A stretch of 64,000 nt of DNA from a bacterium (GCA_030431715.1 JAUIIO010000007.1:33756-97755), one strand, 5' to 3'. Shown: positions 42,001 through 63,000, counted from the first letter of the stretch. Made by a program: the numbers.

Positions 42001-45000
42001 TTTTTACGGGCACGATGTCCCTAGAGAGTTTGCGAAAGCGGCGAAGAGGACGGAAGGGGCAACCGTTTTTGGCTATCAGGTGCAAGATCCAGAGCGTTAT
42101 GGAGTTGTTGCTTTTGATAAGGATAAGAATCCAACTGAGATTGTGGAGAAGCCGGAGAACCCACCTTCGAACTATGCTGTTACTGGTATTTACTTTTATG
42201 ATAATGCCGTTATAGAGATCGCTGAAAACTTGAAGCCGTCACCCCGCGGGGAACTTGAAATTACTGATGTTAATAAAGAGTATCTAAAGAGAGGAAAGCT
42301 TTCTGTTACGCGACTTGGAAGGGGAACGGCATGGCTTGATACAGGGACTCATGACTCACTTCTCCAGGCGTCTCATTTTGTGCAGACTCTGGAAGAGCGG
42401 CAGGGGCTTATGGTAGGTTGTGTTGAGGAGATTGCTTTTCGCAAAGGGTTTATCAACCGAGATCAACTCGAACAATTAGCTGCGCCACTATCGAAGAGTA
42501 AGTACGGACAGTACCTACTCAACATTCTAAAAGAGGATAATCCTCAGGTGAGCTATTGACACCGCAGGTGTCATTGCGAGGCGCGTTCCGTAAGGTATTT
42601 TGCTGTAAGCAAAATAGCGAGGTCGAAGACTGAACAACAGCCTGTCGTCCGTAGCTTTATGCGAAGGATGGAAGCAATCCCCTGTATGTGCGATTACTCT
42701 CGGGGATTGCTTCGTCGTTCGGCATAAATGCCTCAGCTCCTCGCAATGACGAGGAGGGCGATAACGGTGTTGAGTAGAGAGTTTTTGAAACGTAGGTAGG
42801 AAATTATGTCAAAAGAATATGCATTTAGTTTAAGCCGAGTTGGGAAGACGTATTCTTCTAATAAAAAAGTTCTTGAGAATATTAATCTCTCTTTTTTCTA
42901 CGGCGCCAAGATCGGTATTCTTGGTTTAAATGGTGCCGGTAAATCGACTCTCTTAAAGATAATCGCCGGTGTTGAGAAAGAATTCTCCGGTGAAGTGCAC
43001 CGTACAGAGGGGTATACCCTCGGTTATTTGCCACAGGAACCCGAGCTCAGTCAGGACAAGACGGTAAAAGAAAACGTAATGGAGGGGCTTGGTGAGGTTG
43101 TCGACCTCTTAAAGCGTTTTGAAGAAATTAACGCAGCTTTCGCCGATCCGGAACTGGATCCAGACAAAATGCAGGTACTCTTGGATGAGCAGGCGAAAGT
43201 GCAGGAGCGTATCGAGCAGTTAAATGGTTGGGAGATTGATCATATTCTTCAAGTAGCGATGGAGGCTTTGAGGCTACCTCCCGGCGATAAGGCTGTAACC
43301 CATCTCTCTGGTGGTGAGCGAAGAAGGGTCGCACTCTGTAAGCTCCTTCTCGAAAAACCCGACATACTGCTCCTCGATGAGCCGACAAACCACCTTGATG
43401 CAGAAACTGTTCTCTGGCTAGAGCAGCACCTCAAGCAGTATGAAGGTACAGTTATTGCCATTACGCACGACCGATATTTTCTTGATAATATCGCTGGTTG
43501 GATTCTTGAATTAGACCGTGGCAAAGGAATTCCGTGGGAGGGCAATTATAGCTCTTGGCTTGAGCAGAAAGAGAAAAGACTCGCACAAGAAGAGAAGCGT
43601 GATGCTAAAAGGCAAAAGACTCTTGAGCGTGAGCTAGAATGGATACGGATGAGCCCGAAGGCGAGACATGCGAAAAGTAAAGCGAGGATCAAGTCTTTTG
43701 AGGCGCTTGCATCCGAGCAAGATGCTCAGAAGATTGAGGATATGGAGATCTATATTCCTCCTGGGCCGCGTCTTGGTGATGTCGTTATTAATGCTGAAGG
43801 CGTCACAAAGTCATTTGAAGAAAAGCTTCTGTTTGAGGATCTCTCATTTAAACTTCCTCCGGGAAGTATTGTCGGGATAATTGGACCAAACGGTGCTGGT
43901 AAGACGACTCTCTTTCGAATGGTCACAGGAGAGGAGAAGCCCGATGCTGGGGAGATTGTTGTCGGTGAAACCGTAAAGCTAGGGTATGTGGATCAGAGCC
44001 GAGATGCGCTTGATGATTCAAAGACCATCTGGGAGGAGATTTCGGGAGGAGAAGAGCTTCTGCAGCTTGGATCTAAAGAGATGAATTCAAGGGCGTACTG
44101 TTCACGTTTTAATTTCACGGGCTCTGATCAACAGAAGAAAGTTGGTGCGCTCTCGGGTGGAGAACGTAACCGGGTGCATCTTGCGAAGCTCTTAAAGTCA
44201 GAATCAAATGTGCTCCTGCTCGATGAGCCGACAAACGATCTTGATGTGAATACATTACGCGCGCTTGAGGATGCGATACTTACCTATGCCGGATGTGTTC
44301 TGGTGATAAGTCACGATAGATGGTTCTTAGATCGTGTAGCGACCCACATTCTTGCTTTTGAGGGTGATAGTAATGTGGTTCTTGTTGAAGGGGGATTCCA
44401 GGACTACGAAGAGGACAAGGTGAAGCGCCTCGGTCCAGATGCTCTTCAACCGAAGTCGATTAAGTATCGGAAGCTTACGACGGGATAACTTCTCCTCATC
44501 CTTCCTCCGCGTTCTCCGAGGGCTCCTGTGTTGATTCTTTCTTGGACTAGCTCAGGGTTTTTGTTGCTTCACACATGTAACATGTTTGTGGGCAATGGGA
44601 AAAATAAACAGGGAGAACGCGGAGGTCGCGGAGGGGGCTCATGAGAGATGAATAAGATATTCCTTGTTCCCACCACCGCCTTTAATTGGGGAGGGGATAA
44701 TGCCGTGTACTTTAAATTGGTTTTTAGTGCACCACTTTTCCACATCACTAAGAAGTGACTCTATAAGCGTTTCATCTTTGAGTACTCCTCCTTCAGGTAC
44801 ATCTTCTTGACTTGCTTGATACTGCGGTTTAATGAGGGCTATGATTTTACCTTCTGGTTTCAGAAGCTTCCGTGCTGCGGGAAGGATTTCTTGAAGAGGG
44901 ACAAGAGAAATATCGATACTTATAAAATCAACCTTCTCGGGAAGCTCTACTTTTTGGGCATTATTCTTTTCAAGTACAAAGACTCTATCGTCTGAGCGAA

Positions 45001-60000: not shown

Positions 60001-63000
60001 CTAAGGCAATGGGCTATGATTCTTGCCCGATGGACGGCTTTGATTTTGAAGAGGTCGGTAGACTCATCAATCTTCCGGAAGATCATATCGTCACTATGTT
60101 TGTCGTTATCGGAAAGAAGGCAAAAGACGCATGGCCCAAGCCAGGGCAACTCCCTTTGGAAGAAGTCTGGATCAAGGATACCTTCTAGCCCAGTCTCTCC
60201 GAGTTCTCCGCGATCTCCTGTGTTGCTTTAATCTTTTGTAGAGAGGATTGAAGCGTCGGCCGCTTTGCGGAGGGAGAGTATTGTTTCACCAAAGAAGGAA
60301 TAAACAGGGAGCTCGCGGAGAACGCGGAGTGGGTGTTATGGGGTGTTATTTAAGGCTTCGGGGTCGCGGAAGTCAAACCAAGTAAGTTTAAGGAAAACGT
60401 CTTTTCTCTTAATGTCTAAATTCTTAAGACTTATCTCTACTATATTATTTGCACGTGCGTGTTTTTTCCCTTTTGCAACGAGCTTAACATCGGGCTCTTC
60501 CTTGCTCCGTACATAGAGCTGTGCAGAATTCGAAGGGGAACTTACTTCCTGCGGAAAATATACTAGGATTTGTACGAGGTCTGCTCCGATGCCTAGCCGC
60601 TTATTGAGAAGCTGAACGGTTGCATATCGCGCTACGTTCTTTGTTCTTACTCCGTTTGTAACATCATATTTAAAAGTAAGAGTTTTTCCGTAAACGGGTT
60701 CGTCGGTTTCTTCCTGTCCGAATGTTAAATAACCATCTACTTTGTCGCGAGCGGCAAATTTAATGAGAGGAATGTTATCGACCGTGGCGGCAATGTTTTG
60801 AATCAGTCCTCGACTTCCTTCTCCTCGATCGTCGACTACATAGTCAGGAATGTATCTTGTAAATCCAGTGGCGCCGTCTGAGTCTTTCGGAAGAGAAAAA
60901 GTATCAGATACGCGTATGTTCCGACCGGTTTCCATGTCGATGATAACTTCAGCTTTATACGATGAGAGCACTGGAGTATCGTCGACAAACAGGCCAGCGA
61001 TGTAATTAAGGCATAAAAGGAGTATGACCACTTGGGTGAGAATAGAGAGTGCTTTAAGAGCCGGGGGGAGTTTGTACTCTCCTTCTTGTTCCTTTTTCTT
61101 CTCTTTGATGAGTTGGTTTTTTCTTTTATCCCAGTCTTTTCGCATAGTTTTACGTTACCAATGGGGTATCGTGGCAATTCAGGTGACTACAGTTGAGAAT
61201 TCTGTATACTCAAGCATATTGTCATGCTGTTTGGGCTTATGAAAAGACAAATTCTTACATACACTCATAAGGAGCAGGGAGCGAATTTAGTAGAATATGC
61301 GCTCTTGATCAGTCTTGTCGCAGGTCTCTCTGTTGTCGTTCTTACTAGTATTGGTCGTGAAATGGCTGATATCTTTTGCTACACAGCGGGAAAAACCATG
61401 ACCGGCGATGCCGCAACTGCTGATGCAGCTCAATATGGCGGAGCCTACGATTGGGATCAGGGATGCTGTGTGGCCAAGAAGCAAGATGGTTCGCTTGGAG
61501 ATGGTGGATGTCTCTAGTGCTTTGTCCATTAAGTTTTGCTAAGCATCTCTAGAATTTTACACCTCTCTTCCCATCCTCCTTTCTTTTTTTACCTATATAT
61601 GTAACAAAATCTGCTATTAATTTGACTGCAATATCCTGTGGCCTTGGTTGTTTATTGCTCCTCATCGTTTGGTTCGGGTCGCGGGTAGCATATGTATAGG
61701 GAAAATATTATGCGTAATCACACACTACTCCTCGCGTCGTTTTTTTTGTTTGTAAATGTTTTTTCGCTACAGTTCGTCCACGCAGATCCAGCAACCCCGA
61801 CCCTGAGTGATGAAGCGCCAGAGATTAAGATTGATGATCCGTGGGCGCACGACGAAGATTTTAAAGAGGGAGAATGGCAATCGACAGCTAGTCTTGGATT
61901 TAACATGACCGATGGTAACAGTAATACAACGCTTTTTACTGCGGGCCTGAGTTCTGAGATGGAAAAAGGGAAAAATATCTGGCGATTTAAAGGGGAGCAT
62001 AGTTTTGGAGAGGACGACAACGAAACCAACCTCGATCAATCCGAAGCCCTTGCAGAATACAAGCGGCTTATCACAGAACGCATGTATTACGGTCTGGGAA
62101 CCAAGTACACCCGAGATGACATCGCTGATCTTAAGTACCGTGTTTGGATTAATCCCGTCCTCGGTTATTTTTTATACAAAAATAAAGATGTAAAGTTTAA
62201 CATTGAGGGAGGTCCCTCTTATGTATTTGAAGAGCAAGGGGATGATACCAATGACTATTTTGCTCCTCGCTTTGGTGAGCGTCTTTCTTATGCGGTGAGT
62301 AAGACAGCGAGCATTCTTCATGAAGCTTACGTTACCCTTGATACGACCGATAGTGATAACTATATCATTGAAGCTAGGCTTGGACTTTCCACCACGGTAA
62401 CTGAGACGATCAGTCTTGTGATAACGATTGAAGATATCTACGACAACGTTCCGGCAGAGGGACGAGTGCGTAACGATCTGGGTATGTTTAGTACGCTTAG
62501 TCTTGCCTTTTAATAGGCAGTTCTTTAGGACTCATCATCGGATATGAGTTCATCTAGGTCGTCCTCTACTTCGTCAGGAAAGCAGTCCGCCATGTAGTCG
62601 CTACGTTTTGCCTCTAGCCATCCAGAGATTCGCCCGTTTTCTCGAACGGTATTTGCCGATGCCTCGAGCACTCTGAGATCGTCGGTGAGGGGGTAGTATT
62701 CTCCCTTATGAGTCATGTCAGGAGATTTTCCGGTCTCAAGAAGGTTGTCGAGCCATACACGGGTAAGCTTAGCGCGGTATACGTCAGGGCTCTCGGCAGC
62801 TTCGGCATCCTCAAGTGTTTTAGCTGAGAGACCAAGAACAACGGCATCAAATATTTTTGCTCCAGCGGACATGCTCTGGAGTAGCAGTGCCGTAATTTGC
62901 AGGTGATTGCATCCCCATCTTTCTTGCTCGAGTTCCAGATTATATCTTTCATTATTAATTTTAAGTCTGGTTTTCTGTTTCTTATAGCCCTGCTTATCTA

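Follow-up and report, generated by a model that had tools for sequence, protein, structure and literature searches.

Intergenic elements with inverted heptad-array arms in a bacterial contig belong to a widespread repeat family linked to GxxExxY genes

We analysed a 64,000-nucleotide stretch of bacterial DNA (GCA_030431715.1, JAUIIO010000007.1:33756-97755; hereafter the window) in which three intergenic elements of about 130 bp carry inverted arms, each arm consisting of three heptads repeated with a 9-bp period. These copies belong to a widespread family of heptad-arm elements, and the family is linked to GxxExxY, a family of PD-(D/E)XK proteins. Both conclusions are firmly supported by the evidence set out below.

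Results

Three inverted heptad-array elements in the window

A preliminary description of the window had reported three copies of the element, with variable spacers between the heptads and unrelated cores. All three copies are real and lie where they were placed, and their limits were refined to 44505-44633, 45412-45543 and 60197-60329 (Table 1). The right arms are perfect in all three copies and read AATAAA-CAGGGAG-nn-CGCGGAG-nn-CGCGGAG. Each left arm has one deviating heptad, and the left-arm consensus is CTCCGNG-nn-CTCCGNG-nn-CTCCTGT followed by GT(T/G)(G/A)(A/C). The copies have terminal inverted repeats with the ends CTCCGCG...CGCGGAG, while the arms themselves are direct heptad arrays and not palindromes. 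The C-rich arm (C-arm) precedes the G-rich arm (G-arm) rather than following it as in the canonical order of the family, and short heads (GTGAA, GTTGA or GTTGC after the left arms, AATAAA(C) before the right arms) face inward. The spacing from C-arm to G-arm is nearly constant at 79, 82 and 83 nt. The innermost heptad is the variant CAGGGAG/CTCCTGT, which is also present in locus L375 and in many others.

A MAFFT alignment of the three copies limits conservation to the arms and their inner heads (CTCCTGTGT in the left half, AATAAACAGGGAG in the right half), and the 2-nt spacers do vary as described. The cores are essentially unrelated: they share 17 invariant columns against 10.7 ± 3.2 in shuffled sequences, a value matched by 9 of 200 shuffles, and are at most marginally alignable and at best very distantly related. 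The predicted folds are long hairpins in every copy, with z scores between -5.1 and -7.8 for the plus strand and between -3.3 and -5.6 for the minus strand.

The two-heptad pattern CGCGGAGNNCGCGGAG, allowing up to two mismatches, matches the window nine times against 0.24 expected, and none of 100 shuffles reaches nine. Exact heptad repeats at the 9-bp period are found in the window at these elements and at a few coding sites only. Chance resemblance or a low-complexity artefact, in whose favour one can cite the small copy number in the window and nothing else, is refuted by these counts and by the hundreds of related loci elsewhere.

A fourth element, overlooked in the preliminary reading, lies in the divergent gap between the RNase PH gene and the open reading frame (ORF) at 59019-59576. 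It alone in the window has the canonical arrangement, G-arm first and heads outward, the opposite of the arm order in the three copies. Its 33-nt core contains a small hairpin of its own, and its heptads are identical to those of the GxxExxY cassette in locus L246, described below.

Table 1. Heptad-arm elements of the window and features near them
Feature	Coordinates	Strand	Sequence or layout	Heptads and positions
Copy 1, C-rich arm	44505..44534	+	CTCCGCG tt CTCCGAG gg CTCCTGT + head GTTGA	CTCCGCG 44505, CTCCGAG 44514, CTCCTGT 44523
Copy 1, core	44535..44602		without significant similarity to the other cores	
Copy 1, G-rich arm	44603..44633	+	head AATAAA, CAGGGAG aa CGCGGAG gt CGCGGAG	CAGGGAG 44609, CGCGGAG 44618 and 44627
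Copy 2, C-rich arm	45412..45441	+	CTCCGCG ag CTCCGTG gt CTCCTGT + head GTGAA	CTCCGCG 45412, CTCCGTG 45421, CTCCTGT 45430
Copy 2, core	45442..45512			
Copy 2, G-rich arm	45513..45543	+	AATAAA, CAGGGAG ag CGCGGAG tt CGCGGAG	CAGGGAG 45519, CGCGGAG 45528 and 45537
Copy 3, C-rich arm	60197..60226	+	CTCCGAG tt CTCCGCG at CTCCTGT + head GTTGC	CTCCGAG 60197, CTCCGCG 60206, CTCCTGT 60215
Copy 3, core	60227..60298			
Copy 3, G-rich arm	60299..60329	+	AATAAA, CAGGGAG ct CGCGGAG aa CGCGGAG	CAGGGAG 60305, CGCGGAG 60314 and 60323
Fourth element (58870)	58869..58956		canonical order, G-arm first: AAA-CACAGAG ct CACAGAG aa CACAGAG, core, CTCTGTG at CTCTGTG ca CTCTGTG-TT	
tlyA	44639-45367	-	stop codon 44639-44641	
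T2SSE-ATPase/REC gene	45549-47186	-		
Orphan ORF	60336-61145	-		
Paralogous ATPase gene	32466-34667			
Unrelated hairpin	42656-42728		27-nt arms, 74% complementary, 19-nt loop	

The heptad arms form a cross-phylum family

Scans of one genome per species for GGAGNNCGCGGAGNNCGCGGAG, of metagenomes for ACAGGAGNNCNCGGAGNNCNCGGAG and of viral contigs for three successive CRCRGAG heptads each returned at least 120 loci; the exact 28-nt right arm had no match in the metagenome scan. The usual form of the family is TTCAC-(CRCRGAG nn)3 - core - (CTCYGYG nn)3-GTGAA. Many loci of the genome scan are intergenic inverted pairs in which TTCAC-(CGCGGAG nn)3 and (CTCCGCG nn)3-GTGAA enclose a core of 17-180 nt, and such pairs span Planctomycetota, Verrucomicrobiota, Gemmatimonadota, Acidobacteriota, Chloroflexota, Poribacteria, Ratteibacteria and one metagenome-assembled genome of Thermoplasmatota. 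Part of the genome-scan matches, from high-GC actinomycetes, resemble coding repeats. In metagenomes a common form is TTTGA-ACAGGAG-nn-CRCGGAG-nn-CRCGGAG ... CTCYGYG-nn-CTCYGYG-nn-CTCCTGT-TCAAA, and one metagenome locus (L139, 50% GC) has an arm that matches the left arm of copy 1 at every base, also in the spacers. The family had been thought confined to the 44-60 kb part of the window; this is true within the window and does not hold beyond it, where the family crosses phyla and occurs on viral contigs.

Under a relaxed definition that asks for at least two heptads per arm, 130 of the 168 pairs listed run from G-arm to C-arm and 38 from C-arm to G-arm. A stand-alone unit in the C-to-G order of the window copies is found elsewhere, 21 nt after a stop codon on a contig of 39% GC (L178).

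Several other arrangements of the arms were observed. The IMG/VR loci (L252-L371) have up to 6 arms each, mostly of the CACAGAG and CACGGAG variants, with 42 G-to-C pairs among the loci listed. At three loci (L062 523-701, L091 2440-2520, L106 1360-1440) the nonamer CGCGGAGGT / CTCCGCGTC is repeated in long tandem arrays, of 7 to about 25 units, that have no inverted partner. Tandem heptad-arm elements also lie at 1150-1750 of L119, a contig binned as a Thermoplasmatota archaeon, which is either a cross-domain occurrence or a binning error.

Rfam has no match to the window at its gathering threshold, and 14 related loci (E <= 1) give sub-threshold matches to generic (miRNA) hairpins only. A published description of the heptad arms was not found in the literature on heptad strings, GxxExxY, PDDEXK_3/PF13366 or TIGR04256, in agreement with the earlier statement that no catalogued family is matched.

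The arms flank GxxExxY genes

The link to a protein family is seen in locus L120, where the arms enclose a 149-codon ORF that matches PF13366 (E = 9e-43) and encodes a PD-(D/E)XK protein; the NCBI name of its family, GxxExxY (TIGR04256), was confirmed. A profile search found a GxxExxY gene or fragment in 13 of 240 arm-selected loci, always beside arms, with the G-arm ahead of the start codon and the C-arm lying at the stop or beyond it. The same layout is seen from the protein side. All seven GxxExxY genes taken from that side (L243, L246, L247, L249, L372, L374 and L375) have both arms: the G-arm stands immediately ahead of the start codon, and the C-arm again lies at the stop or beyond it. 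Decayed forms of the gene, present as C-terminal stumps, fragments or a frameshift, lie beside arms in L139, L205, L219, L229 and L235. A decayed GxxExxY fragment has a second small palindrome, AGGTTTCTGCGGCGCAGAAACCT, in its flanks (L139 700-730 and 905-935, L205 520-550).

GxxExxY is a very large family, with more than 8000 homologues scored in one search. C-terminal tails such as SAISANSAV, LRALRDLRGE or PRSLRSLR are present in 59 of the 120 best-scoring homologues of the L120 protein, and these tails are (CTCCGCGnn)3GTGAA translated in different reading frames. It is therefore the nucleotide sequence that is conserved and not the peptide, and the tails of the public GxxExxY records (P0121-P0240) are likely to be read-through artefacts of gene calling.

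In the protein-side loci, housekeeping genes of the same orientation flank the cassettes: a PAPS-reductase-family gene and a GTPase/APS-kinase gene, genes for aspartyl-tRNA synthetase and arginase, for thiolase and HPPK, and for two CODH/ACS subunits. Their heptads are of the variants CGCGGAG, CACGGAG, CGCAGAG, CACAGAG (L246) and CACAAAG (L243, L372), and the two arms match one another (CGCGGAG/CTCCGCG, CACGGAG/CTCCGTG, CACAGAG/CTCTGTG, CACAAAG/CTTTGTG). Some GxxExxY cassettes have the order G-arm, ORF, C-arm, short spacer, second G-arm (L205, L139, L193). Other small cargo is also found, a DUF5615/PIN-like ORF between G-arm and C-arm (L185 9337-9698, L196 143-501). The window copies contain no ORF, as is the case for most related loci.

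The predicted structure of GxxExxY has a minimal PD-(D/E)XK nuclease fold (predicted local distance difference test score, pLDDT, 96). The Foldseek neighbours of the model are generic PD-(D/E)XK proteins only, the best being lambda exonuclease and Cas4 at E = 0.01, and GxxExxY has no sequence match in the PDB. The family is listed in a single review, where its function is given as unknown (PMC3424549).

The two arms of an element covary

Across 36 arm pairs, 88.1% of cells are paired between the arms, against 82.3 ± 0.9 after column shuffling and at most 56% in slid registers. The arm-to-arm covariation score is 0.239 against 0.145, a value as high in none of 500 shuffles, and the head heptad adds to the signal. 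Covariation is seen between position 2 of the G-arm heptad and position 6 of the C-arm heptad (GC 88, AT 50, GT 10, AC 15), and between positions 5 and 3 (GC 135, AT 9, GT 7, AC 14). The asymmetry between G.U and A.C mismatches, examined as a pointer to the transcribed strand, is mixed: nine elements have G.T only, six A.C only and eight both. It is also inconsistent in cassettes of known sense strand. Matching of heterogeneous arms in register and out of register gave 27 ties and did not discriminate.

The window copies abut stop codons

The elements had been described as lying tight against stop codons, and they do so on both sides. Between the last heptad of the right arm and the minus-strand stop codons of tlyA, the T2SSE-ATPase/REC gene and the orphan ORF (Table 1) the distance is 5, 5 and 6 nt, and this gap reads NGGGN; copy 1 ends 5 nt before the tlyA stop codon. 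The left arm follows the plus-strand stop of ettA (44488) by 16 nt and that of the nitroreductase gene (60188) by 8 nt. The elements fill their convergent gaps almost wholly, with 14-21 bp left over in the two such gaps, and the flanking proteins are not appreciably truncated by them. Scans for promoters and terminators found no promoter-like or terminator-like site inside the elements, which also do not present the short GC-rich hairpin and U-tract of an intrinsic terminator.

Read on the minus strand, the C-arm of copy 2 is TTCAC-ACAGGAG-CACGGAG-CGCGGAG and lies 44 nt upstream of the tlyA start. On that strand tlyA has the full layout of a cassette, with the arm, 44 nt, the ORF, its stop, 5 nt, and then CTCCGCG-CTCCGCG-CTCCCTG. 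We considered tlyA as the cargo of a canonical cassette formed by the G-arm at 44609-44633 and the C-arm at 45412-45436 and found this less economical than a reading as three C-to-G units, because four arms would then stand alone and their constant spacing of 79-83 nt would go unexplained. A single relative was found, L122, whose TlyA is 65% identical. There the start codon of tlyA is directly preceded by a two-heptad G-arm, the upstream gene is followed by neither a C-arm nor a core, and a G-arm comes first after tlyA. The arm layout thus differs from that of the window, and the arrangement turns over within the lineage.

The orphan ORF has no homologue among 5.8 billion proteins, and seven of the ten large ORFs in the window have no NCBIfam match; the lineage is very divergent. 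The ATPase gene next to copy 2 matches Pfam T2SSE and lacks a strong match to an NCBIfam ATPase family; it and its paralogue at 32466-34667 both encode GspE/PilB-like secretion or pilus ATPases fused to a C-terminal receiver domain. An unrelated hairpin lies in the 246-bp gap upstream of ettA (Table 1).

Discussion

We lean towards the view that the three window elements are gene-less derivatives or relatives of cassette arms, selfish or neutral, that fold as interrupted hairpins in read-through transcripts and are tolerated in very short intergenic gaps. Each arm is a polar unit, in which a short head (of the TTCAC / TTGA / TAAAC or TTAAC type) is followed by three CRCRGAG heptads at the 9-bp period. 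The full form is a small cassette with a G-arm immediately upstream of the start of a GxxExxY gene (about 125 amino acids) and a complementary C-arm at or just after its stop, so that the arms can close an interrupted stem of about 25-30 bp around the ORF and its ribosome-binding site. Gene-less versions may arise through decay of the ORF, perhaps also through independent spread, and would then persist in intergenic DNA. In the window, a transcript from either flanking gene would meet a CUCC-rich arm a few nucleotides past its stop and then the GGAG-rich partner, and the folded read-through RNA would be a long hairpin in which 7-bp helices are separated by small internal loops. We infer that the molecular effect is most likely that of a hairpin in a 3' untranslated region or between cistrons, acting as a barrier to 3' exonucleases or as a substrate of RNase III. 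Such a role is suggested by analogy with repetitive extragenic palindromic (REP) sequences, Correia elements and rRNA intervening sequences (PMC4990558). The heptads are probably kept constant by a protein that recognises their sequence, and the obvious candidate for it is the GxxExxY nuclease.

Several observations weigh against this view. No GxxExxY gene is present among the ORFs of the 64-kb window, nor in the arm-bearing viral loci listed (1.14 Mb). The C-to-G order of the window copies is that of a minority, 38 of the 168 pairs listed, and neutral decay does not explain the constant spacing of 79, 82 and 83 nt or the constant 5-6 nt to the stop codons. The lengths of candidate target-site duplications in 50 related elements follow the distribution of the shuffled control, and no direct repeats flank the window copies; without target-site duplications, no transposition mechanism is evident. 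Many related arms have decayed independently of their partner, mostly by transitions at two CpG positions. Finally, heptad position 4 shows no covariation with its counterpart (GC 71, AT 14, GT 28, AC 29), and the spacers of related elements are not complementary in register beyond what a mirrored purine/pyrimidine bias in composition gives (60 of 148 against 52.8 ± 5.3). The stem is therefore often poor, and pairing alone is insufficient to account for the conservation.

The last of these points bears on an alternative that is tentative and the best of those considered, namely that the heptads are sites on double-stranded or hairpin DNA to which a protein binds, either the GxxExxY nuclease or a factor of the host; the arms would then help the cassette to move or recombine, and RNA folding would be incidental. 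Inverted arms with three sites each, spaced at 9 bp, would be reminiscent of the subterminal repeats found at transposon ends. The heptads are conserved in sequence while spacers and cores vary freely, position 4 varies with no compensating change in the partner arm, and the six heptads of an element are usually of one variant, an observation equally compatible with a co-evolving protein specificity and with base pairing. The tight coupling of the arms to one protein family and their distribution across phyla and on viral contigs point the same way. The absence of target-site duplications, the viral loci that have arms and no gene, and the structural resemblance of GxxExxY to generic PD-(D/E)XK folds only all count against it. 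Inverted double-stranded sites for one protein would give the same covariation as a stem, so RNA or DNA pairing and protein recognition are not separated by the arm comparison. The preliminary description had offered both, a heptad array read by a protein or a long-range stem; covariation between the arms, to be expected in both cases, is clear at position 2 and absent at position 4.

Somewhat less probable, in our estimate, is that the window copies are RNA elements selected by the host, that is, bidirectional transcript-end hairpins placed 5-16 nt after stops as U-tract-independent terminators, 3' stabilisers or RNase III sites. Such a role would suit elements that occupy nearly the whole of their intergenic gaps, in which no other terminator-like site is found, and it would suit the perfect right arms, the constant spacing and stop distance, and the strong predicted folds. 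Set against this are the lack of a U-tract, the different arrangement in the only relative, and the presence of these arms in clearly selfish settings across many phyla, with many of them decaying; three copies, moreover, are all that is visible.

A bolder proposal, which we regard as speculative, is that heptad arms and GxxExxY together form a cross-phylum class of selfish cassettes that had not been recognised before. The nuclease would read 9-bp-spaced heptads, in hairpin DNA or in its own mRNA, to move or control itself without target-site duplications, inserting precisely between the genes of operons. Inside-out units such as the window copies would then be a functional by-product (abutted ends, or modules for alternative pairing) rather than debris.

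Least probable among the readings that survive is a translational switch around tlyA, in which the C-arm would pair either with the upstream GGAG-rich arm, hiding the ribosome-binding region, or with the downstream arm. Around tlyA the order is G-arm, ORF, C-arm, about 80 nt and a second G-arm, as in the three GxxExxY cassettes with a second G-arm, and the G-arm supplies a Shine-Dalgarno sequence directly before the ATG in L246, L120, L249 and the tlyA of the relative. In the window itself the G-arm is 44 nt from the tlyA start with no Shine-Dalgarno sequence evident there, only one of the three copies has a gene after it on that strand, and ORF starts are not enriched directly downstream of G-arms relative to an antisense control. 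The host-element, DNA-site and switch explanations are not mutually exclusive.

For the window, the gene-less derivatives that we favour have a smaller meaning: they would be passengers or 3'-end hairpins of a known general kind and not an invention of this lineage. The main weight of the analysis lies in the family that was uncovered rather than in the three copies themselves. GxxExxY, a family without an assigned function, gains a concrete partner in cis, a conserved and sequence-specific pair of heptad arrays, whose gene-less copies are scattered over many bacterial phyla and viral contigs. The arms also account for the odd C-terminal tails in public annotations, and they define a repeat family that genome annotators and catalogues of RNA motifs seem to lack.

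Comparison with known systems

Part of the preliminary interpretation stands, namely a real family of inverted heptads with variable spacers and cores near stop codons; its local range does not, and the kinship that it drew with REP sequences and miniature inverted-repeat transposable elements (MITEs) holds by analogy only, because the arms are not palindromic REP units and the elements lack target-site duplications. Readings as a clustered regularly interspaced short palindromic repeat (CRISPR) array, as an element with a tRNA-like core or as a CsrA sponge were rejected, their defining features being absent.

Integron attC sites are imperfect inverted repeats with a variable centre that stand right after the stops of successive genes, and the heptad elements share these traits. 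We rejected an attC identity because the elements have no RYYYAAC / GTTRRRY core sites, their neighbours are housekeeping genes (ettA, tlyA, RNase PH), and there is no integrase or cassette array. In hok-family mRNAs, pairing of the 5' and 3' ends (fbi/tac) causes fold-back inhibition around a small, potentially toxic ORF and its ribosome-binding site. The GxxExxY cassette, and not the ORF-less window copies, has a comparable potential for long-range 5'-3' pairing that encloses a small ORF; we know of no antisense RNA partner or toxin activity for it.

The Correia or NEMIS (Neisseria miniature insertion sequence) element of Neisseria is a MITE with 26-bp terminal inverted repeats and a TA duplication, whose transcribed hairpins are cut by RNase III. 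The heptad elements are similar in length (about 100-150 bp), in their terminal inverted repeats of about 30 bp, in their intergenic or 3'-untranslated position and in the long hairpins expected in read-through RNA. They differ in that they have neither target-site duplication nor transposase, their interiors are not conserved, and the heads of the window arms point inward. The conserved interior of a MITE is not found here, the cores being at most marginally alignable, and the associated gene is not a known transposase.

The architecture of the GxxExxY cassette matches that of the intervening sequences of 23S rRNA, which optionally contain a small ORF, as in Coxiella, and whose stem is cut by RNase III (PMC4990558). 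These sequences lie in helices 9, 25 or 45 of 23S rRNA and encode a four-helix-bundle protein, whereas the protein of GxxExxY cassettes is of the PD-(D/E)XK type and the cassettes are flanked by protein-coding genes. The window contains no rRNA gene.

A further likeness is with REP sequences and bacterial interspersed mosaic elements (BIMEs) of Gammaproteobacteria. These are short intergenic repeats downstream of genes, often in inverted pairs around variable linkers, that have no target-site duplications, are co-transcribed and form hairpins at mRNA 3' ends or protein-binding sites. A REP unit is an imperfect palindrome of 20-40 nt that has a conserved tetranucleotide on its 5' side and is associated with a Y1 (HUH) transposase, the REP-associated tyrosine transposase (RAYT). 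The heptad elements are likewise short, intergenic, near gene ends, paired in inverted orientation around variable linkers and free of target-site duplications. In contrast, the heptad arm is a non-palindromic array of three heptads and its associated gene encodes a PD-(D/E)XK protein. Palindromic repeats between genes are of a known general kind, as are small selfish ORFs enclosed in a stem; the heptad family itself does not appear in Rfam or the searchable literature. Its combination of 9-bp-spaced heptad arrays, a PD-(D/E)XK partner, a lack of target-site duplications and a range that spans phyla and viral contigs is apparently undescribed.

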